Source: a virus
Taxonomy: Duplodnaviria > Heunggongvirae > Uroviricota > Caudoviricetes
Virus record (IMG/VR): IMGVR_UViG_3300042892_003674
Strand: one strand, 5' to 3'
DNA: 64,000 nt
Shown: piece by piece, positions 3,101 to 46,601 of the stretch
Layout of the letters: each line of letters begins with the position of its first letter
Position numbering within the stretch: the first letter of the stretch is position 1
Program-made: the position numbers and the translations under genes
The notes under the pieces: model-generated
Databases searched by the model: none
Told to the model about the DNA's origin: nothing
The model's input: only the letters and a program-made list of their open reading frames with translations

Positions 3101-4068
3101 TTTGGCCAGCACCTAGTAATTCAACAAATGATTATCCTACTGCAGAAATAGTTGTTGGTGTAGGTGGTACAGTTAGTTCAGTAACATTAAAAAATAGAGG
3201 TGTTTTAATTCCAGATACTACAACTAGATTCACTGTACAAACAGGTACTCAGAGTTATCAATTAGGAACTGCATCAGGTAGTGGATTTTCAATAGGTATT
3301 GGTACTATTGCTACTGCAGATATGAATACTGCACTTGGATATGGGGCAATGTACAGACTTGGTGTAGGCTCTGATAATATTGGAATAGGTATGTGGGCAG
3401 GTACTTCATATGGAATGCCTGGAGGTTTCAACAATAATGCCTTAACAGGATCAGATCAATCTATATTCATAGGTAGATTTACATCTGCACTTAATAATGA
3501 TAGTGTGAATGAAATTGTTATTGGAAATGAAGCAGTGGGTAATGGTAATAATACAGTTACTTTAGGTAATGATAGTGTAACTAAAACAATTCTTAAAGGA
3601 AATGTAGCAGTAGGATTTACCGGTTCAGTTTCTCCAAATTGTGATTTAGAAATAAAAGGTAATCAAACATTTACTGTTCCTGATACTAATAGTAGAACCG
3701 CTGGTGATGTTGTTTATTTTGGTTCTGGTACAGGTTTAACACCAGGAGTAATATATTATTATAATGGAACAGCTTGGCAATTGGCAGATGCTTCAGTAGA
3801 AGCAAGTTCATCTGGATTATTAGCAATCGCTTTAGGAACAAATGTTTCTGATGGTATGTTATTAAGAGGATTTTCTAAATTTAGTGATGCTATATATACT
3901 GCAATGACCGCAGGTTCTGTACAATTTTTATCAGTAACAAGTGGTCAATTTGGAGAATCACAACCGGTTTCAAGTGGTGAGGTTGTTAGAGTAATTGGTT
4001 ATTGTGTTGATGATACAAATAACGTATTATATTTCTGTCCTGATACTACTTGGATAGAATTACTATAA
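145..4068 (+). CDS. Giant tail-fibre/adhesin-like structural protein with tandem 17-aa NTAxG repeats. The reading frame is open from position 1, so the gene may start before the window.
   Basis: 1307-aa ORF with no in-frame stop between nt 1 and 144. Residues ~495-935 are ~25 degenerate repeats of the form SL(Y/R)SNTTGxxNTA(L/I)Gxx, resembling YadA-head/Hep_Hag-type adhesin repeats. It is Gly/Thr/Asn-rich with no clear enzymatic motifs. Confidence 0.85.
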   Translation: MAAYNGIFITDNTDTITTTSTSANAIILSSNTVVNDSLTNTVVIGGQFLTVDSSDTVYLGGTVDINNQYKLPLSDGISGQVIKTDGAGNLSWSSGVGTPVITVTAAAFTALSSFSSSSTYRITGVDIDLYGGTEIYLTTNSQGVLNEVGEGKFYNPRYDQTVHGYKIWEGTSSSYATGSTVYWGGRAWSNNSGTNTSPALTIFFLNPTEWTVIPYTNGLYYDISYDKIMYDRVTDKIIYRNEKGTNIVSTNSENIRYWVDDIGLYNPIKVFQWGNLYNPLNAKGIASQNIVNSYNENINFRGVLQTNITMNNLSSQFNMNTGTSSVQDNLILNNYSYDRQSTLLGTEYNMSFQSGDTITIDGNLVVQGTTTTINSENLIVKDPIIVLAASQSGTPTLDSGLFVDRGIGATQAFIWDESMDEFKFISTTSGATVSGNVSITDYSNVRTGVLKVGTGDFDSNDRFVVSSYGGTVSLIVDESGSVYNRGRAGIVTNTVFGLSALSSNTSGYQNTAIGASALLSNTLGFENTSVGASTLLLNTTGSRNTAVGDSSLRSNTTGFSNTAIGVDSLYSNTTGVSNTALGVYSLVNNKTGGSNTALGSDSLRFNTGGSFNTAVGYNSLYNNTTGVTLDEFSFSPGAGYIDGYYSGVTLIYSTGSNNFMNSPIVSIEIFSGEIVSVSTEYIGSGFSDTTTVFTINSYGIYATGSGFEIGILSLLSGLNNTAVGYTSLYSNTTGLANVAVGYNSLYSNISGSFNSTLGSGALFSNTFGSNNTALGNSSLYSNTTGFSNTALGVVALRFNTSGSYNTALGYQSLYSNTGGFSNNAIGNSALYSNTTGISNNAIGNSALYSNTTGSRNIAFGESSLRSNTTGSWNIALGMQSLYNNTTGYENTALGFNSLFSNTTGWGNIALGVASLYSNTTGDRNTALGYVAMRYYRGSWSVGLGGSALSVASTGIKTLSATFSSGTGYIPGTYSNVRLVWSGDGTFWPAPSNSTNDYPTAEIVVGVGGTVSSVTLKNRGVLIPDTTTRFTVQTGTQSYQLGTASGSGFSIGIGTIATADMNTALGYGAMYRLGVGSDNIGIGMWAGTSYGMPGGFNNNALTGSDQSIFIGRFTSALNNDSVNEIVIGNEAVGNGNNTVTLGNDSVTKTILKGNVAVGFTGSVSPNCDLEIKGNQTFTVPDTNSRTAGDVVYFGSGTGLTPGVIYYYNGTAWQLADASVEASSSGLLAIALGTNVSDGMLLRGFSKFSDAIYTAMTAGSVQFLSVTSGQFGESQPVSSGEVVRVIGYCVDDTNNVLYFCPDTTWIELL
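1627..2950 (+). repeat. Tandem ~51-nt (17-codon) repeat array inside the first CDS, interrupted at ~2040-2290.
   Basis: Recurring nucleotide blocks such as ttatattcaaatacaactgg...aatactgcacttggt. The array causes spurious antisense ORFs at 1652..1982 and 2354..3016. Confidence 0.8.
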
Positions 4069-4070
4069 CA

Positions 4071-4106
4071 GAAAAGACTTTGAGAAATCAAAGTCTTTTC
4101 TTTATT
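4071..4106. terminator. Bidirectional intrinsic terminator between convergent genes.
   Basis: Stem aaaagacttt / aaagtctttt with loop gagaaatc, flanked by an A-run and a T-run. Confidence 0.6.
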
Positions 4107-4897
4107 ATATAATCATATACTGTTTCAATTACCAGCTCATTCTCTTTAGTTTTTTTACTATCTGATAAAAAGTGTGTATATCCTAATATACTTGCTGCAT
4201 CATCAATATTATTTATTGATGAGAAATCAGTAATCAACTTAACATTGTAGTTAAAATAATTACATAAATTAGTAATATAAAATTGTTCAAAAATTAAAGA
4301 TGTTATCTCATATTCCATATTGTAATTATCAATATATTCAATGTATTTTAATGCTTCACTCCACCAAATATCTAATATATCTAATCTATTAAATCCAATT
4401 ATACCACAATTATAAGACTCTTTAAAATTCCAATTTATATATTTTGAATCAAGTCTAAAGTTATTTATAAGATTAATGTAGGGACGTATATGACCTAATC
4501 CTACATCTTTCATAATTTCACTTTGCTGAAAACAAGCATCACTGTTTAGTAAATCTATTGGTGGTTTCTTTGACCAAATTACGTCATTATCTATATGAAT
4601 AAATGGTTCCTTCTGTATCTTACAGGCATATATTTTACCAATGGCCCAATGTTTAGAATCAATATTACTAAGAGCAGTTTCTAATTCAATAGATACTGAT
4701 GTAAATGGTAGTTTATACTTATCAATTAAAAGCTCTTTTCCCTTAATATCTGTTACCAATTCAACCTTAGAAAAATAATTTTTACTCATTTCTAATGAAA
4801 TTGATAAACATTTTATGAATATTTCCTCTCTATTAAATCCAAGTAAAAAGTCATCCATTGGTTTTGTCCAAAGTGAATATATTGCCTTATCTATCAT
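4088..4897 (-). CDS. Hypothetical protein.
   Basis: 269-aa ORF whose TAA lies inside the terminator hairpin. Contains a HIDNDV (DxD-like) motif, but no firm family assignment is possible. Confidence 0.7.
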   Translation of the reverse strand: MIDKAIYSLWTKPMDDFLLGFNREEIFIKCLSISLEMSKNYFSKVELVTDIKGKELLIDKYKLPFTSVSIELETALSNIDSKHWAIGKIYACKIQKEPFIHIDNDVIWSKKPPIDLLNSDACFQQSEIMKDVGLGHIRPYINLINNFRLDSKYINWNFKESYNCGIIGFNRLDILDIWWSEALKYIEYIDNYNMEYEITSLIFEQFYITNLCNYFNYNVKLITDFSSINNIDDAASILGYTHFLSDSKKTKENELVIETVYDYIIKKRL

Positions 4898-4928
4898 TTA
4901 ATTTATATTAAATAACTTAAATAAGTTG

Positions 4929-5014
4929 AAGAGAGCAAGGGAATCGAACCCTACCCAGTTTCCCGGGCGTCTCGCTTAGCAGGCGGACCCTATCACCATC
5001 AAGGTTTACTCTCC
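4929..5014 (-). tRNA. tRNA-Ser(GCU), class II with a long variable arm. The anticodon stem has one mismatch.
   Basis: Acceptor GGAGAGU/GCUCUCU, T-arm GGGTTCGATTCCC, variable stem CCCGG-GAAA-CTGGG, anticodon loop CTGCTAA, length 86 nt. Confidence 0.6.
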
Positions 5015-5020
5015 ATATTG

Positions 5021-5106
5021 CAGTGAACAAGGGAATCGAACCCTATGCGATTCAACGCACGTGCTGCTTTCCAGGCAGACCCAATCACCATCAAGGTTTA
5101 CTCACT
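5021..5106 (-). tRNA. tRNA-Ser(GGA), class II.
   Basis: Anticodon stem CTGC/GCAG with loop CTGGAAA, T-arm GGGTTCGATTCCC, D-arm identical to the previous tRNA, 86 nt. Confidence 0.7.
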
Positions 5107-5112
5107 ATGTTG

Positions 5113-5199
5113 CGGAGAAAACAGGGCTCGAACCTGCACACCAGTTTCCCGATACCGGTTTTCAAGACCGGGGCGATACCAATTACGCTTTACTTCTCC
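5113..5199 (-). tRNA. tRNA-Ser(UGA), class II.
   Basis: Acceptor GGAGAAG/TTTCTCC, anticodon stem CCGGT/ACCGG with loop CTTGAAA, T-arm CAGGTTCGAGCCCTG, 87 nt. Confidence 0.75.
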
Positions 5200-5210
5200 A
5201 AGTAATTTAG

Positions 5211-5294
5211 AAGAGAGTGTGGGACTCGAACCCACAAAGGTACTACCCTTTACTAGTTTTCAAAACTAGGCCTTCATCCAGCCAGTTACTCTCC
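5211..5294 (-). tRNA. tRNA-Ser(UGA), second copy, class II.
   Basis: Acceptor GGAGAGT/ACTCTCT, anticodon stem CTAGT/ACTAG with loop TTTGAAA, variable stem AAAGG-GTAGTA-CCTTT, T-arm TGGGTTCGAGTCCCA, 84 nt. Confidence 0.75.
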
Positions 5295-5303
5295 ATATAT
5301 TTG

Positions 5304-5375
5304 TGATTCCAGAGGGAATCGAACCCCCACCTGATCGTTCGTAGCGACCTATCCTATCCGTTAAACGATGGAACC
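5304..5375 (-). tRNA. tRNA-Arg(ACG).
   Basis: Acceptor GGTTCCA/TGGAATC, anticodon stem GGTCG/CGATC with loop CTACGAA, T-arm GGGGGTTCGATTCCCTC, 72 nt. Confidence 0.8.
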
Positions 5376-5379
5376 AATT

Positions 5380-5416
5380 AAAAACAAAAAACCCACAAAC
5401 TTTGAGGTTTGTGGGT
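5380..5416 (-). terminator. Intrinsic terminator, candidate attenuator hairpin, directly upstream of tRNA-Arg.
   Basis: On the minus strand: ACCCACAAAC-CUCAAAG-UUUGUGGGU followed by UUUUUUGUUUUU. It sits 19 nt after the stop of leader ORF A and ends 2-3 nt before the 5' end of the tRNA. Confidence 0.6.
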
Positions 5417-5436
5417 ATACTAATTTTTTATATCAA

Positions 5437-5514
5437 TTATGAATACAACAGAACCTCCCTCAAATTACTTGAGCGACTAGACGAACTTGACGATGTTGTG
5501 ATAATTGTTTTCAT
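5437..5514 (-). CDS. Candidate Ser-rich leader peptide A, 25 aa: MKTIITTSSSSSSRSSNLREVLLYS.
   Basis: ATG lies 6 nt after the TTTTAATATATAAATAAT motif. Nine Ser codons (TCG, TCA, AGT, TCT) plus CGC, matching the anticodons of the five tRNAs immediately downstream: Ser GCU/GGA/UGA x2 and Arg ACG. The ORF is below the 60-aa cutoff of the ORF track. Confidence 0.45.
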   Translation of the reverse strand: MKTIITTSSSSSSRSSNLREVLLYS

Positions 5515-5535
5515 ATTATTTATATATTAAAATTT
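5515..5535 (-). promoter_or_regulatory. Conserved TTTTAATATATA upstream motif, candidate phage promoter for leader A and tRNA block 1.
   Basis: Minus strand reads GAATAAAATTTTAATATATAAATAATATG. The same motif recurs upstream of more than 12 start codons in this window. Confidence 0.45.
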
Positions 5536-5558
5536 TATTCTTTGTTTTTATTTATTTG

Positions 5559-5689
5559 ATAGAAAGGTGGGACTCGAACCCACAACCACGGCTTTAACAG
5601 AGCGAAGTAACTTATTTCATTGCTACTAATTTCTTAGAGAAAGACTGACTAAGTATGATTACGTGCTCTACCAATTGAGCTACTTTCTA
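5559..5689 (-). tRNA. tRNA-like gene with a ~57-nt structured insertion between the D-arm and the anticodon stem. It may be an intron-containing tRNA-Asn(GUU) or a tRNA pseudogene.
   Basis: Perfect acceptor UAGAAAG/CUUUCUA, canonical D-arm GCTC-AATTGGTA-GAGC, T-arm GTGGGTTCGAGTCCCAC, anticodon-like loop CTGTTAA (GUU) with a 4/5-bp stem. Total length is 131 nt against an expected ~75. The inserted segment can fold as GUAA...UUAC enclosing CTTAG...CTAAG. Confidence 0.45.
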
Positions 5690-5693
5690 TTTG

Positions 5694-5764
5694 CACGTCG
5701 ACTAGGACTCGAACCTAGAACATTGGTTTTGGAGACCAAGATGATGCCATTTCACTATCGACGT
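5694..5764 (-). tRNA. tRNA-Trp(CCA).
   Basis: Acceptor ACGTCGA/TCGACGT, D-arm GTGA-AATGGCA-TCAT, anticodon stem TTGGT/ACCAA with loop CTCCAAA, T-arm CTAGGTTCGAGTCCTAG, 71 nt. Confidence 0.8.
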
Positions 5765-5771
5765 GTTTTGG

Positions 5772-5844
5772 GTTGACAGACGGGACTTGAACCCGCAATC
5801 CCTTGGTTCACAACCAAGTGCTTTAACCATTAAGCTACCATCAA
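5772..5844 (-). tRNA. tRNA-His(GUG), with no encoded G-1.
   Basis: D-arm GCTT-AATGGTTA-AAGC, anticodon stem CTTGG/CCAAG with loop TTGTGAA, T-arm GCGGGTTCAAGTCCCGT, 73 nt. Confidence 0.7.
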
Positions 5845-5846
5845 AG

Positions 5847-5921
5847 TGACCCCGGTGGGGATCGAACCCACGACCCCTCGATTAAAAGTCGAGTGCTCTA
5901 AACCAGCTGAGCTACGAAGTC
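5847..5921 (-). tRNA. tRNA-Lys(UUU).
   Basis: D-arm GCTC-AGCTGGTTTA-GAGC, anticodon stem CTCGA/TCGAG with loop CTTTTAA, T-arm GTGGGTTCGATCCCCAC, 75 nt. Confidence 0.85.
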
Positions 5922-5930
5922 ATTATTTTG

Positions 5931-6002
5931 TGCGGACTGACGGAATCGAACCGACCTCTTAGGGACTTCACTCCTACGCTAAACCGTCTCAGCTAAATCC
6001 GC
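5931..6002 (-). tRNA. tRNA, probably Phe(GAA). The structure is irregular: A-C at positions 31-39, G32/G37, and a U-U in the T-stem.
   Basis: Acceptor GCGGATT/AGTCCGC, anticodon arm TAGG-A-GTGAAGT-C-CCTA, T-arm GTCGGTTCGATTCCGTC, 72 nt. Confidence 0.5.
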
Positions 6003-6008
6003 AATTTG

Positions 6009-6081
6009 GGTGAAAGACGGGGATCGAACCCGCGACAACTTGAACCACAATCAAGCACTCTACCACTGAGCTACAATCACC
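6009..6081 (-). tRNA. tRNA-His(GUG) with an encoded G-1 pairing C73.
   Basis: Extra 5' G before acceptor GTGATTG/CTTTCAC (two U-U pairs), D-arm GCTC-AGTGGTA-GAGT, anticodon stem CTTGA/TCAAG with loop TTGTGGT, T-arm GCGGGTTCGATCCCCGT. Confidence 0.7.
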
Positions 6082-6088
6082 ATGTTTG

Positions 6089-6161
6089 TGGACCCTCAGG
6101 GAATCGAGCCCTGTCCTTTGGATTTTCAGTCCAACGTACGCACCAGCTATACGAAAGGTCC
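6089..6161 (-). tRNA. tRNA-Phe(GAA).
   Basis: Acceptor GGACCTT/AGGGTCC, anticodon stem TTGGA/TCCAA with loop CTGAAAA, T-arm CAGGGCTCGATTCCCTG, 73 nt. Confidence 0.75.
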
Positions 6162-6171
6162 ATTATATTTG

Positions 6172-6245
6172 CACAAGCCAAGGGAGTCGAACCCTTTCCA
6201 TCCGAGGTTTTGGAGACCTGGTGCATACCATTATGCTGACCTGTA
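6172..6245 (-). tRNA. tRNA with a CCA anticodon (Trp-like, second copy). The D-arm and the 26-27 junction are irregular.
   Basis: Acceptor ACAGGTC/GGCTTGT, D-stem GCAT/ATGC, anticodon stem (C)AGGT/ACCT(C) with loop CTCCAAA, T-arm AAGGGTTCGACTCCCTT. Confidence 0.5.
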
Positions 6246-6250
6246 TTTTG

Positions 6251-6323
6251 TGATCCCGGTGGGACTCGAACCCACAACCTTCTGATTAAAAGTCAGAAGC
6301 TCCACCAATTGAGCTACGAAATC
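6251..6323 (-). tRNA. tRNA-Lys(UUU), second copy.
   Basis: Acceptor GATTTCG/CGGGATC, D-arm GCTC-AATTGGTG-GAGC, anticodon stem TCTGA/TCAGA with loop CTTTTAA, T-arm GTGGGTTCGAGTCCCAC, 73 nt. Confidence 0.85.
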
Positions 6324-6329
6324 ATTTTG

Positions 6330-6402
6330 TTCCCCCGCCGGGAGTCGAACCCGGCCCCATAAGTTAAAAGCCTATTGCCTACCGCCAGTTTGCTACGAGG
6401 GA
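6330..6402 (-). tRNA. tRNA with a UUU-type anticodon loop (third Lys-like). The D-arm is poor.
   Basis: Acceptor TCCCTCG/CGGGGGA, anticodon stem ATAGG/CTTAT with loop CTTTTAA, T-arm CCGGGTTCGACTCCCGG, 73 nt. Confidence 0.55.
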
Positions 6403-6404
6403 TT

Positions 6405-6445
6405 ATAAAATAAAAAAACCCAAACTTAATTTTAAGTTCGGGTTT
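6405..6445 (-). terminator. Intrinsic terminator, candidate attenuator hairpin, immediately upstream of tRNA block 2.
   Basis: On the minus strand: CCCGAACUU-AAAAUU-AAGUUUGGG, perfect only as RNA thanks to a G-U pair, followed by UUUUUUUAUUUUAU that ends 3 nt before the 5' end of the tRNA at 6402. Confidence 0.6.
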
Positions 6446-6474
6446 ACGTTTATGCTTTATTCTCTTTTATGACA

Positions 6475-6585
6475 TTATCCTACAATAACATCTTCTTTTG
6501 AGAACGACATACTCATACATCCGAACTTGTGGCTAAACCACTTGAACGACTTACTAAAGCTTGTATGTTTGAAATTTGTTCTCAT
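6475..6585 (-). CDS. Candidate F/K/H/W-rich leader peptide B, 36 aa: MRTNFKHTSFSKSFKWFSHKFGCMSMSFSKEDVIVG.
   Basis: ATG lies 6 nt after TTTTAATATATATAAC. Composition is 6 Phe, 5 Lys, 2 His, 1 Trp and 7 Ser in 36 codons, matching the Lys/Phe/His/Trp tRNAs downstream. Codons AAG-UUC-GG are complementary to the 5' arm of the terminator. Confidence 0.5.
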   Translation of the reverse strand: MRTNFKHTSFSKSFKWFSHKFGCMSMSFSKEDVIVG

Positions 6586-6606
6586 TGTTATATATATTAA
6601 AAGTTT
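6586..6606 (-). promoter_or_regulatory. Conserved TTTTAATATATA upstream motif, candidate promoter for leader B and tRNA block 2.
   Basis: Minus strand reads AATAAACTTTTAATATATATAACAATG. Paralogous to the 5515..5535 copy. Confidence 0.45.
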
Positions 6607-6675
6607 ATTCTCTCTTTTTGTTTTTTTGTTATTTTTATAGTACAAAAGTAATAAAAGTTTACTTATCTACCTAAT

Positions 6676-6912
6676 TTATTTTAATTTATTTTTAATTTTA
6701 GTTGTAATCTTCTCTAAACTTGATTTAGAATTTGTTTTTTGTTTTGGAAATCTGCCATGATTTCCCATACTATCATAGTCAGCACATTCATATGCTGAAG
6801 GTGATGGTAGTCCACTATAGTGACAAAATTCATCCTCACTAAGTATTTCCTCTTTTTTATCTTCTTGTTTCATATTTAAAACTTCTTCTTTATTTATATT
6901 ACAAAGATACAA
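6676..6912 (-). CDS. Hypothetical small protein.
   Basis: 78-aa ORF in a co-oriented gene block. Confidence 0.5.
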   Translation of the reverse strand: MYLCNINKEEVLNMKQEDKKEEILSEDEFCHYSGLPSPSAYECADYDSMGNHGRFPKQKTNSKSSLEKITTKIKNKLK

Positions 6913-7481: not shown

Positions 7482-7685
7482 ATGCCCGCCCGCTCAAAAC
7501 AGCAATTAAAGTACATTTTTGCGATGCGTCGTAAATATAAAAACAAAAAAAGTGCTCCTAAACATATGAAGTGGGTATTTAACAAAGATTGGACCCACGA
7601 TGTCAATGTAAGTGGGTTACCAACCAAAGTTAAAAGCTTTCAAACTTATGTAAGTGAGAACTACGATGCTACTACTAAAAAGTAG
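7482..7685 (+). CDS. Candidate small Lys/Arg-rich basic protein, possibly nucleic-acid binding.
   Basis: 67 aa from ATG 7482: MPARSKQQLKYIFAMRRKYKNKKSAPKHMKW... It begins with an unusually GC-rich stretch, gcccgcccgc. It sits in an otherwise non-coding gap. The competing antisense ORF 7415..7627 is hydrophobic junk. Confidence 0.3.
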   Translation: MPARSKQQLKYIFAMRRKYKNKKSAPKHMKWVFNKDWTHDVNVSGLPTKVKSFQTYVSENYDATTKK

Positions 7686-8914
7686 TTTTTCTTACCTCTC
7701 TGAACTATAATAAATTTGTTATTTATTAAATCACCATCAGTTACGATGTATATTTCTTCTCTTTTTATTTTATTTACTGCAACAGAGTTTTCTTTTAAAG
7801 CTCGTCTTGCTTCATTATTAGATTTTAAGAAGCCAGTTTTAAATAGAATGTCGGTCATTGATATACCATTCACAATCTCTTCCATTGGAACATTTGCCAT
7901 TGGTAATCCACTAAATATATCTAAAATAGTTTCATTATCAAGTGAATTTAAGTTACCATTGTTAAATAGAATGTTTGAAGCTTCTACTGCTTTGTTAAAC
8001 TCTTCTTCACCATGTACCATTATAGTCAATTCTTTGGCTAATGTTTTTTGTAATAAAAACAAATGTCTAGCTTTATTGTGTTCTTCTATTAAACCATCAA
8101 TAGTTTCTTTATCTAAAAATGTAAAGATTTTAATAAATCTTTCTGCATCTGCATCATCTGTGTTTAACCAAAATTGGAAAAACTTGTAAACAGATGTTTT
8201 ATCTTTATCTAACCATATATTCCCACCTTCTGACTTACCAAATTTTGTACCATCTGCTTTTGTTAAAAGTGGACAAGTCATAGCAAATGCTTCTCTACCT
8301 GGGAACATCTTGTGTATCAATTCTGTACCTGTTGTTATGTTACCCCATTGATCAGAACCACCCATTTGTAATAAACAGTTATGTTCTTTATTAAGGTGTA
8401 AGAAATCGTATCCTTGAATCAACTGGTATGTAAATTCAGTGAAAGACATACCTTCACCTTCGATACGGTTTTTTACAGATTGTTTTGATAACATGTAATT
8501 TACGGTAATTCTTTTACCGATGTCTCTTACAAAGTCTATGAAACTAAACTTTGACATCCAATCGTAGTTGTTTAGAACTGGTGTATCACCTAAAAATCTT
8601 GTTAAAGTATTTCTGATACCTTCGACGTTTTTATTAAGTGTTTCTTCATCTAAAAGATTTCTTTCAGATGATTTCCCAGATGGGTCACCGATCATACCAG
8701 TAGCACCACCGACAACTGCGATTGGATTATGTCCAAAGTTCTTCATATGTTTTAAAAGAATGATTGGAACTAAACTACCAATATGTAGAGAATCTGACGT
8801 TGGATCAAATCCAATATAAGCGGTGGTGGCTTCTTTTAAAAGTTGAGCCTCCGTTCCGGGTATAATATCATGTACTAACCCACGCCATTTTAATTCTTCT
8901 ACTATATTTTTCAT
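7661..8914 (-). CDS. tyrS: Tyrosyl-tRNA synthetase, bacterial type.
   Basis: GFDPTSDSLHIGSLVPI (HIGH-type motif), KFGKS (KMSKS), C-terminal S4-like domain, 417 aa. Confidence 0.9.
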   Translation of the reverse strand: MKNIVEELKWRGLVHDIIPGTEAQLLKEATTAYIGFDPTSDSLHIGSLVPIILLKHMKNFGHNPIAVVGGATGMIGDPSGKSSERNLLDEETLNKNVEGIRNTLTRFLGDTPVLNNYDWMSKFSFIDFVRDIGKRITVNYMLSKQSVKNRIEGEGMSFTEFTYQLIQGYDFLHLNKEHNCLLQMGGSDQWGNITTGTELIHKMFPGREAFAMTCPLLTKADGTKFGKSEGGNIWLDKDKTSVYKFFQFWLNTDDADAERFIKIFTFLDKETIDGLIEEHNKARHLFLLQKTLAKELTIMVHGEEEFNKAVEASNILFNNGNLNSLDNETILDIFSGLPMANVPMEEIVNGISMTDILFKTGFLKSNNEARRALKENSVAVNKIKREEIYIVTDGDLINNKFIIVQRGKKNYFLVVAS

Positions 8915-44951: not shown

Positions 44952-46601
44952 ATGACACCAATAATATTAGAATGGTCAAACGCATTTGACGTAGATAATA
45001 ATATAACCGGATATGAGTTATCGTATAAAACAACTGGATCTTGGATATCCTTACCATTTATAACATCCTCACAAACAAGTGGGAGTTATAGTTTCACACC
45101 AACACAACAAGTTACTCATTCATTTAGAATAAGAGTTCGTGATTCATTTTCTGCTGTTAGTTCATATAAATATTTTAATTATGTAATTAGTGCAGAATAT
45201 CAAATATCAAGTGTTTATTATAATAATACTTTCGATGAAAATAATGACGTACGTGATACATGTCAGATTGTATCAGATCCAACAAATACTTACACAGATA
45301 TTTATCTTAGTAGTGCACCACCTGCTGTTGGAGTTATTGTTTATACAGATCAACAACAAACAAACGATTATTTTGGACATAATGAATATTGGATAATTAA
45401 ATCACCATCTGGATTACACTATTCATGTTGGATAGATGATTTTGGCGTTATCCAGGCGGTATATTTATGTGGTGCAAATAGTGCACAGATTTCGGCAAAT
45501 GCACCAAACTGGTTAGGTCGTTTGGCTGCATCACAAACCTGTGGATTAGCACTTACTGGTACTGTATATTGGGATTCACAGTATTCTTTTGCGGTTGGTA
45601 CAATATTATATACAGATCCATTATTCACGACACCATTAAACGGTCAATCAAGATTCTTTCGTATGGAATATACTAATTCACTTGGGTTGACTTTAACAAA
45701 GATTGTAAAAGTTGGTAATCTAACAAACCCATCGGTTATAGTTTCTATGGATAATGTATCTACTGTGTGTTCTGCACTTTTTATGGCATATAGAACTACA
45801 GGAACGAATTTCAATACTAGTTTGGGTAACTCAATCGATGGAACTTCTTTATGTCAATTATCCCCAAATACAAAATGTTATATAAGGGTAGCAGATCCAA
45901 GTATTATTAGTACTGGTGATATAGTATACACTGTTAGTGGAACGAACGCGGGACCAACCTTTAGTGGAGGTAACCAATATTATAATATGTATATAGCTTT
46001 TGCTGCTAATGGACCAAATACTAATGCAATTTGTCAGGTTGATGATTATGGTGTAATAACAGTGCAAGGATACTGTAGTGGTAGTTCTGCTGGTTGTTGT
46101 TTATTACCCGGTACAAATATAACCTTATTTGATGGTTCTACTATTAGTATAGAAGATATAATTGGTGGTGAATCATTACTAACTTATAATATTGAAGAAT
46201 CAACTTTTGAAGAAGGCTTAGTTACCAATATATTTACTCCAATACATAATGATATTGTAAAACTTGTAATCGGAGATAATACAATAGATTGTACATCAAC
46301 ACATCCTTTCTGGTCAGTAAATAAGAAAGAATGGGTTTCTTTAAATCCTAAAGAAACTATGCTTACTATGAATATAAATATCGAACATTTAGAAATTGGT
46401 GATATTTTATTAAATGAGAGAAATGAAGAAGTTATATTAGATGATATTATACAAATAGATAGTGAAGATATAGTAACTTATGATATTTCAGTAGAACCAA
46501 ATCACACATATTATGCTAATAGTATATTAGTTCATAATAAAACTGATGAAAATGGGAATGACATAATATTTAACCCTATTAATAATTTTACTAACCCTTA
46601 A
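44952..46601 (+). CDS. FN3-like structural protein with a C-terminal Hint (intein-like/BIL) domain.
   Basis: 549 aa. N-terminal fibronectin-III-like fold (ILEWSNAFDVDNNITGYELSYKTTGSW). C-terminal Hint domain, described in the next feature. Confidence 0.9.
   Translation: MTPIILEWSNAFDVDNNITGYELSYKTTGSWISLPFITSSQTSGSYSFTPTQQVTHSFRIRVRDSFSAVSSYKYFNYVISAEYQISSVYYNNTFDENNDVRDTCQIVSDPTNTYTDIYLSSAPPAVGVIVYTDQQQTNDYFGHNEYWIIKSPSGLHYSCWIDDFGVIQAVYLCGANSAQISANAPNWLGRLAASQTCGLALTGTVYWDSQYSFAVGTILYTDPLFTTPLNGQSRFFRMEYTNSLGLTLTKIVKVGNLTNPSVIVSMDNVSTVCSALFMAYRTTGTNFNTSLGNSIDGTSLCQLSPNTKCYIRVADPSIISTGDIVYTVSGTNAGPTFSGGNQYYNMYIAFAANGPNTNAICQVDDYGVITVQGYCSGSSAGCCLLPGTNITLFDGSTISIEDIIGGESLLTYNIEESTFEEGLVTNIFTPIHNDIVKLVIGDNTIDCTSTHPFWSVNKKEWVSLNPKETMLTMNINIEHLEIGDILLNERNEEVILDDIIQIDSEDIVTYDISVEPNHTYYANSILVHNKTDENGNDIIFNPINNFTNP
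46098..46538 (+). other. Hint domain (mini-intein / bacterial intein-like, no endonuclease).
   Basis: Block A CLLPGTNITLFDGSTISIEDI, block B TSTHPFW (TxxH), C-terminal blocks VTYDISVEPNHTYYANSILVHN. The residue after HN is Lys, so canonical splicing is unlikely and only cleavage is expected. Confidence 0.75.

Follow-up and report, generated by a model that had tools for sequence, protein, structure and literature searches.

What controls the transfer RNA (tRNA) genes of phages, and why phages carry such genes, is a long-standing question. It is raised in a concrete form by a 64,000-nucleotide (nt) stretch of caudoviricete DNA (IMG/VR record IMGVR_UViG_3300042892_003674; hereafter the window), in which two neighbouring tRNA blocks, A and B, each lie behind a short leader holding a micro open reading frame (ORF) and a hairpin. 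Each leader and its block are here called a module, and all features related to the finding are on the minus strand of the window. We consider it very likely that leaders A and B are ribosome-mediated (leader-peptide) transcription attenuators that gate the phage tRNA operons behind them.

The two modules share one layout (Table 1): a promoter-type motif, TTTAATATATA, a micro-ORF beginning 5 to 6 nt further on, a GC hairpin with a T-run, and the tRNAs after another 10 to 15 nt. Neither module has space for a further promoter ahead of its tRNAs and, as these start 10 to 15 nt past the T-run, transcripts that reach them must cross the terminator. The codons of the micro-ORFs correspond to the tRNAs of the blocks. 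Leader A is enriched between codons 5 and 21 in codons for Phe, Lys, His and Trp (binomial p 1.3e-7, given a window proteome frequency of 0.137). In leader B, all nine consecutive codons from 8 to 16 are for Ser or Arg (binomial p 5.6e-9); each can be read by a tRNA of block B, and all the isoacceptors of the block are sampled, TCG and TCA being read by UGA, TCT by GGA, AGT by GCU, and CGC by ACG.

The cassette also occurs in other genomes, namely LR745206 and a number of viral and metagenome contigs. In a phage database search with the window, only LR745206.1 (634,780 base pairs [bp]) and LR756502.1 (642,428 bp) shared more than isolated tRNAs. Genomes of 634 and 642 kb, which the two records probably represent, are among the four largest in one survey, where they are placed in the Mahaphage clade, whose huge phages have up to 67 tRNAs, and are predicted to have Bacteroidetes hosts (PMC7162821); that paper lists huge-phage tRNAs and has nothing on tRNA regulation. 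We analysed LR745206 as a whole genome to avoid selection bias. It has 59 tRNAs, with eight blocks each behind a micro-ORF. A leader rich in His, Lys, Phe and Trp precedes the block His, Phe, His, Phe, Trp; the peptide MKTKLKYKR, four Lys tRNAs; a leader rich in Ser and Arg, the block Arg, Ser; one rich in Tyr and Glu, the block Glu, Tyr; one rich in Ile, Gly and Ala, the block Ile, Gly and a CAU tRNA; one rich in Asn, Leu, Met, Thr, Val, Ile and Arg, the block Asn, Arg, Leu, Val, Ile, Thr, Met; one rich in Pro, Gln and Asp, the block Pro, Asp; and a Gln-rich leader, three Gln tRNAs. Among the 40,320 permutations of eight leaders over eight blocks, the true assignment is the unique optimum, and for every block its own leader is the best match.

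A larger set was assembled by pattern scans of viral and metagenome contigs and an automatic module detector, which together gave 108 distinct leader peptides and 105 retained modules. One of the viral scans, TAATATATA-N3-9-ATGARAACWA, returned mostly unrelated loci among the matches listed; together with neighbouring scans it contributed at least 16 leader-tRNA modules among 116 new loci listed. Over the 105 modules, the match between a leader and its own block is 0.425, against 0.21±0.014 when permuted (z about 15), and 99.6% of block tRNA identities are present in the module's own leader. What the leaders conserve is composition rather than sequence. Where a block is split in relatives the leader is split too, with an L/R-rich peptide before Leu/Arg and an N/V/T/C-rich one before Asn/Val/Cys/Thr. 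A preliminary description of this DNA proposed that selection acts on the leaders and fits their codons to the tRNAs of each block; this is strongly supported by the runs in the window, the LR745206 permutations and the 105 modules.

These numbers also bear on the possibility that nothing here is regulatory, the ORFs arising by chance in AT-rich promoter regions and the hairpins being ordinary leaky terminators or insulators. Short ORFs do abound in AT-rich DNA, and consensus scans give many promoter-like sites. Against this stand the single best assignment in 40,320, the z of about 15 over 105 modules, the window binomial p values (1e-7 and 6e-9) and the covarying helices described below, and we regard chance as barely credible.

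The terminators are among these helices. Both window modules and seven of the eight LR745206 modules have a canonical intrinsic terminator, a GC hairpin followed by 5 to 9 T. In terminator A, 97% of cells are paired in 13 homologues, with compensatory changes in 10 of 12 pairs; in terminator B, 98% are paired (11 homologues), and compensatory pairs are numerous over the two terminators. The 5' arm of each terminator has a second potential partner within the micro-ORF, which we call region 2. In A, CAAGTTCGGA pairs with CCGAACTT at -11.9 kcal/mol, a value matched by 6 of 500 shuffles; in B, GGAGGTTCTGTT pairs with ACAAACCTC at -9.7 kcal/mol. An ORF segment complementary to the terminator 5' arm, placed directly behind the regulatory run, was present in all nine modules tested, representing seven leader types (p 0.008 to 0.13 each). 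The short Gln leader has it at codons 15-17 and the other eight modules at codons 19-29. Over the 105 modules, 98% have an antiterminator duplex of -8 kcal/mol or better, with a median start at codon 20.

The antiterminator is conserved as well. For type B, 83% of cells are paired and four pairs show compensation, whereas sliding the register leaves 15-57% paired; the type A core is 95% paired. A third type A segment, GTATTG with CAATAT, is possible by eye, in the middle of an alignment that is unreliable there. By an alignment-free measure, an ORF and the terminator arm of its own module pair at -11.7 kcal/mol, compared with -8.2±0.2 kcal/mol when permuted, and the matrix of five classes is diagonal-dominant. 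Moreover, region 2, the 5' arm and the 3' arm change three ways together, as in AAGTTCGG/CCGAACTT versus ATGTTCGG/CCGAACAT and in AACTTGG/CCAAGTT. Both leaders fold more stably than shuffles (z -4.7 for A and -2.4 for B). As modelled, helices 1:2, 2:3 and 3:4 have the geometry of a trp-type attenuator. In folding with a ribosome mask, an A-site at codons 2-16 lets the nascent RNA form the antiterminator. In B, a ribosome between codon 17 and the stop covers region 2, so that only the terminator forms; in A, an upstream hairpin of CATACA with TGTATG can recapture region 2 behind the ribosome. The opposite arrangement, with the terminator melted by fast translation, was rejected for B, whose stop lies 20 nt before the hairpin and where a ribosome at codons 17-26 spares the terminator.

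A terminator and antiterminator pair upstream of translation-related genes is also what a T-box-like element would present, the leader RNA then sensing tRNA directly and free of translation. We hold this to be highly unlikely. No T-box match was obtained at E≤10 in 5370-6670, and the leaders are only 130-175 nt long, without Stem I or specifier architecture. Moreover, many different codons are kept in one conserved frame from an ATG 5 to 6 nt past the motif, and it is composition that is conserved, not sequence.

The proposed attenuation would proceed as follows. Transcription would start at the TTTAATATATA-type promoter and, the micro-ORF beginning 5 to 6 nt later, the ORF would be translated almost on emergence. 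Were aminoacyl-tRNAs for the codons of the regulatory run scarce (Phe, Lys, His and Trp in A; Ser of all three isoacceptor groups and Arg CGC in B), the ribosome would stall in the run, leaving region 2 (around codons 19-23) free to pair with the terminator 5' arm. With the antiterminator formed there would be no terminator, and RNA polymerase would enter the tRNA genes for those same amino acids. Under fast decoding, the ribosome would cover region 2 (B) or the upstream hairpin would recapture it (A), the terminator would form 10 to 15 nt ahead of the first tRNA, and the block would be off. The net effect would be negative feedback, fitting phage tRNA supply to decoding demand. Most likely, then, the phage makes each tRNA set only when ribosomes stall for want of those tRNAs.

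The LR745206 module without a T-run was seen more widely as a fourth kind of leader, the Lys mini-leader MKTKLKYKR, with four Lys in nine codons (LR745206 343136-343208, locus L001; also loci L002, L003, L009, L020 and L026). It sits inside an operon behind a Trp tRNA and has no promoter motif; its stop codon is directly followed by a sequence-variable hairpin lacking a T-run and then by three or four Lys tRNAs. These Lys tRNAs (UUU/CUU; L001 3332-3597, L002 4708-4977, L003 12587-12853) are 82-89 nt long with a long variable arm, and are class-II-like, which is unusual for tRNA-Lys.

A conserved hairpin right past a stop codon, with no T-run, is what might be expected if control were post-transcriptional: translated micro-ORFs would sense the same codons, and stalling would alter the processing or stability of the leader-tRNA precursor, for instance through RNase access to the 5' leader, which must be cut off tRNA precursors anyway. 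For the modules at large we consider this improbable, given the canonical terminators with 5 to 9 T in both window modules and in seven of eight LR745206 modules, and given that the ORF segment covaries specifically with the terminator 5' arm.

Several points weigh against attenuation as we describe it. The Lys mini-leader does not fit the same termination mechanism and probably has a different one. Leader A also holds seven Ser codons, yet Ser tRNAs sit in block B. The type A antiterminator covariation in the small alignment comes mainly from one lineage, and the covariation tests, the alignment-free pairing test included, ignore phylogeny. The full-length RNA at equilibrium always prefers the terminator, so that the switch has to be kinetic, as in trp; and because ORF A extends 15 codons past region 2, its off state relies on the predicted recapture by the upstream hairpin. 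Translation of the ORFs, the conditional character of termination and the direction of the response are what we infer from this arrangement. To our knowledge, the coupling of transcription to translation is poorly characterised in the presumed Bacteroidota host. Finally, stalling through amino-acid starvation, as opposed to tRNA shortage, would not be cured by more tRNA, which leaves the physiological signal uncertain; codon-usage mismatch, host tRNA cleavage and starvation are candidates for the trigger.

There is also a wider reading, towards which we lean on balance, taking its parts jointly. Huge phages may carry modular, codon-resolved sensors of translational capacity, in which each leader peptide gauges the decoding speed of one codon set and the matching tRNA operon is switched on only by slow codons, and the sensor set may detect and repair host tRNA shortages, including those from anticodon-nuclease cleavage, serving at once as a regulated counter-defence and as a tRNA homeostat.

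The promoter-type motif is not private to the leaders. The window has 11 exact copies of TTTAATATATA, including those of both leaders, most of them ahead of ordinary protein ORFs, at 4-6 or 20-25 nt from the ATG, which marks it as a genome-wide motif of promoter type. Micro-ORFs A and B are placed relative to it as real protein genes are. From its positions, TTTAATATATA is probably a phage-specific promoter that yields leaderless or near-leaderless messenger RNAs. The sequence TAnnTTTG is the consensus of the Bacteroidota -7 promoter box. A conserved region of about 40 nt containing it, aaattaggtagat...cttttatctatatttgta, lies 50-60 nt upstream of the phage motif of module A (window 6625-6680, minus strand) and is absent from module B. 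The box and its flanks (aaattaggtagat...tatatttgta) are kept upstream of the LR745206 modules designated M1, M6 and M7, and a nearly identical promoter region of about 40 nt precedes three LR745206 modules (342380, 387700 and 406703), 20-45 kb apart. This arrangement suggests that some modules have tandem promoters, one of host type and one of phage type.

How the two cassettes are related is a separate matter. The preliminary description took the leader modules to be paralogous at the nucleotide level, through duplication of a regulatory cassette. The strings that it quoted are all present, with cttgagcgacta at 5468-5479 rather than 5467-5478, an error of one position. On the minus strand, 6631..6540 (A) does align with 5561..5467 (B), at 84% identity over ungapped columns (75 matches, 14 mismatches, a few short gaps). 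The score of this local alignment, 72, is beyond expectation for AT-rich sequence: over 1000 dinucleotide-preserving shuffles the score averaged 21.5±2.9 and never exceeded 35, and the maximum among 1945 random window segments of the same length was 36. Similarity from the promoter motif alone was rejected as a source, since A or B scored 22-39 against nine other TTTAATATATA-bearing contexts. Outside the motif, the part from ATG to tRNA scores 29 against 18.3±2.6 (reached by 3 of 1000 shuffles, z 4.1) and the upstream part 31 against 22.0±3.6 (19 of 1000, z 2.5). The similarity of the cassettes thus exceeds chance and the shared motif, by a margin that is modest outside the motif. A shared 12-mer, AGTCG(T/C)TCAAGT, lies in different frames of ORFs A and B, so that the resemblance is at the nucleotide level and not at the peptide level.

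As far as sequence can tell, A and B most likely diverged from a single ancestral cassette; outside the promoter, the support for shared descent is genuine, though modest. The term paralogous therefore holds insofar as similarity extends past the motif, and needs qualifying in that the best-matching block is a phage-wide motif and the remainder is modest, which means that duplication is not cleanly separable from shared constraints (promoter, near-leaderless start and N-terminus). That a regulatory cassette recurs is supported, and the family is larger than two, each genome of the relatives having at least seven or eight composition types. It is unlikely, in our view, that the likeness of A and B reflects convergent constraints (promoter motif, near-leaderless start, A-rich first codons and a similar type of terminator), with cassettes that function as proposed without being paralogues. 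The strongest shared block, which also stands before at least nine unrelated genes, the modest z values outside the motif and the 12-mer read in different frames would all fit such convergence. Common descent is favoured by the score of 72 against 22-39 for other motif contexts, by an order and spacing of elements and an M-[KRT]-T N-terminus common to nearly all leader types, and by the nearly identical promoter regions of the three distant LR745206 modules.

Table 1. Features of modules A and B in the window, with further sites of the promoter-type motif.
Feature	Position	Strand	Remarks
Promoter box TACTTTTG	6643..6650	-	Upstream of module A; read from sequence; matches the Bacteroidota-type -7 box TAnnTTTG
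Promoter-type motif TTTAATATATA, A	6591..6601	-	5 nt upstream of the leader A ATG
Leader ORF A, MRTNFKHTSFSKSFKWFSHKFGCMSMSFSKEDVIVG and stop	6475..6585	-	36 codons; homologous leaders in 44 distinct sequences
Regulatory codon run A (codons 5-21)	6523..6573	-	12 of 17 codons Phe, Lys, His or Trp
Region 2 of A, CAAGTTCGGA	6520..6529	-	Predicted antiterminator 5' strand; complementary to terminator 5' arm CCGAACTT
Intrinsic terminator hairpin A	6416..6445	-	13 bp, GC; T-run at 6415..6409
tRNA block A	5693..6402	-	Lys(UUU), Lys(UUU), Trp(CCA), Phe(GAA), His(GUG), Phe(GAA), Lys(UUU), His(GUG), Trp(CCA)
tRNA-like gene with insert	5558..5689	-	Anticodon loop holds an insert of about 51 nt; separates block A from module B
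Promoter-type motif TTTAATATATA, B	5521..5531	-	6 nt upstream of the leader B ATG
Leader ORF B, MKTIITTSSSSSSRSSNLREVLLYS and stop	5437..5514	-	25 codons; about 40 distinct homologues
Regulatory codon run B (codons 8-16)	5467..5493	-	TCG TCA AGT TCG TCT AGT CGC TCA AGT
Small hairpin CTCAA/TTGAG (regions 1:2)	5459..5473	-	Inside leader B; 94.5% paired in 11 homologues, 2 pairs changed on both sides
Region 2 of B, GGAGGTTCTGTT	5447..5458	-	Predicted antiterminator 5' strand; pairs with ACAAACCTC of the terminator 5' arm and loop
Intrinsic terminator hairpin B	5391..5416	-	10 bp; T-run at 5390..5385
tRNA block B	4928..5375	-	Arg(ACG), Ser(UGA), Ser(UGA), Ser(GGA), Ser(GCU)
Other TTTAATATATA sites (examples)	9560, 18619, 28373, 36473, 46626	+	
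Other TTTAATATATA sites (examples)	30979, 38245, 58325	-	

The tRNA calls of Table 1 depend in part on settings. ARAGORN called all nine tRNAs of block A, eight of which also reached the gathering score of the Rfam tRNA model, the exception being the Trp tRNA at 6171-6244. In block B, the first three were called by ARAGORN and Rfam; the last two (5102..5020 and 5014..4928) came up in ARAGORN alone, once its threshold was relaxed. Default ARAGORN and Rfam thus missed two Ser tRNAs, as well as the insert-bearing tRNA-like gene, and relaxed or intron settings recovered all three. Copies with the same anticodon in block A (three Lys(UUU), two Trp, two Phe and two His) differ in sequence. The two Ser(UGA) tRNAs of block B are redundant within one operon.

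The insert-bearing gene, which ends 27 nt before module B begins, is called Met(CAU) with an intron when ARAGORN allows introns; at a relaxed threshold its 3' part alone is called Asn(GUU), and its Rfam tRNA match is partial and sub-threshold. The element also occurs in LR745206 near 342979, 369053 and 388915. At its end the insert has a conserved motif, roughly AGTAGYRAYTRARAG-N-GTTACTTCG, that is also present within odd or truncated tRNA-like elements of the LR745206 tRNA clusters. The gene may carry a small tRNA intron, or it may be one of a tRNA-like family lacking a D-arm.

The window as a whole is AT-rich (about 29% GC) and phage-like in gene content, encoding a tyrosyl-tRNA synthetase, an NAD-dependent ligase and a Hint/intein-domain protein. 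The tRNA clusters are preceded closely, on their own strand, by the synthetase gene (7661-8914, minus strand; Pfam tRNA-synt_1b, E 7e-76), and a DUF6734 protein (4088-4897, minus strand) is encoded directly downstream of block B. In LR756502, an ORF resembling tryptophanyl-tRNA synthetase was noted, by eye only, between the Lys block and module B (L002, about 3660-4380, minus strand). The Hint/intein-splicing domain occupies residues of about 390-530 of the ORF at 44952-46601 (plus strand).

Do the leaders belong to a known class? At the Rfam gathering threshold, a search of the window returned tRNAs only. In a permissive search, the best non-tRNA matches of leader B included the Thr, His and Trp operon leaders, all sub-threshold (Thr_leader 24.7 against 55 bits, His_leader 21.7 against 49 and Trp_leader 15 against 41); leader A matched no Rfam leader family. 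By computation, the modules have the leader ORF, the cluster of cognate codons, the intrinsic terminator and the predicted, mutually exclusive antiterminator that belong to the structure of an attenuator, and depart from all classical members in that the regulated genes are tRNAs only, not biosynthesis enzymes or aminoacyl-tRNA synthetases. Full-text literature searches, with most subscription journals outside their reach, yielded no attenuator or leader-peptide control of tRNA genes, in phages or elsewhere. Leader-peptide attenuation of tRNA genes would, if true, be the first case found, a claim that we bind to the sensor and homeostat reading and favour just as slightly.

Attenuators that read the codons of their own tRNAs would imply a demand-driven supply of tRNA over constitutive codon compensation. 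They would extend textbook trp-type attenuation to stable RNA genes as a new class of target, and to viruses, probably of Bacteroidota hosts, where such coupling is little studied. Being only 130-180 nt long, and existing with at least seven specificities, the modules are directly testable with reporters and, if confirmed, could be used as natural codon-specific sensors of translation capacity.

Four known systems invite comparison. Like phages with tRNA clusters (T4, T5, mycobacteriophages and huge phages), the present ones have arrays of tRNA genes in large genomes; phage tRNAs are proposed to serve in codon compensation and in evading host defences that target tRNAs (PMC10264068). With T-box riboswitches, the modules would share the sensing of tRNA state through a choice between terminator and antiterminator, and translation-related targets. 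In contrast, the T-box binds uncharged tRNA free of translation through conserved Stem I, specifier and T-box elements, none of which occurs in the phage leaders.

The amino-acid operon attenuators of enterobacteria (trpL, hisL, thrL, leuL, pheL and ilvL) have in common with the modules a short ORF, regulatory codons, a terminator ahead of the genes and an exclusive antiterminator, the 5' strand of which follows closely on the regulatory codons. Closest in form are the thr and ilv leaders, each of which responds to more than one amino acid; the phage leaders would be multivalent in the same way. The targets of these attenuators are biosynthetic, whereas those of the phage modules are tRNAs, so that the output would feed back on the sensed quantity itself. 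The modules are also unlike them in being phage-encoded, in numbering at least seven or eight leader types per genome and in having the ORF 5 to 6 nt past a promoter motif. Closest in logic is the pheST attenuator of Escherichia coli, where the pheM leader peptide, with its Phe codons, controls phenylalanyl-tRNA synthetase: an attenuator there controls a decoding component for the same amino acid as the codons it senses. In pheST, that component is a synthetase for one amino acid, encoded on a bacterial chromosome; in the phage modules, it would be a block of tRNAs for two to eight amino acids.

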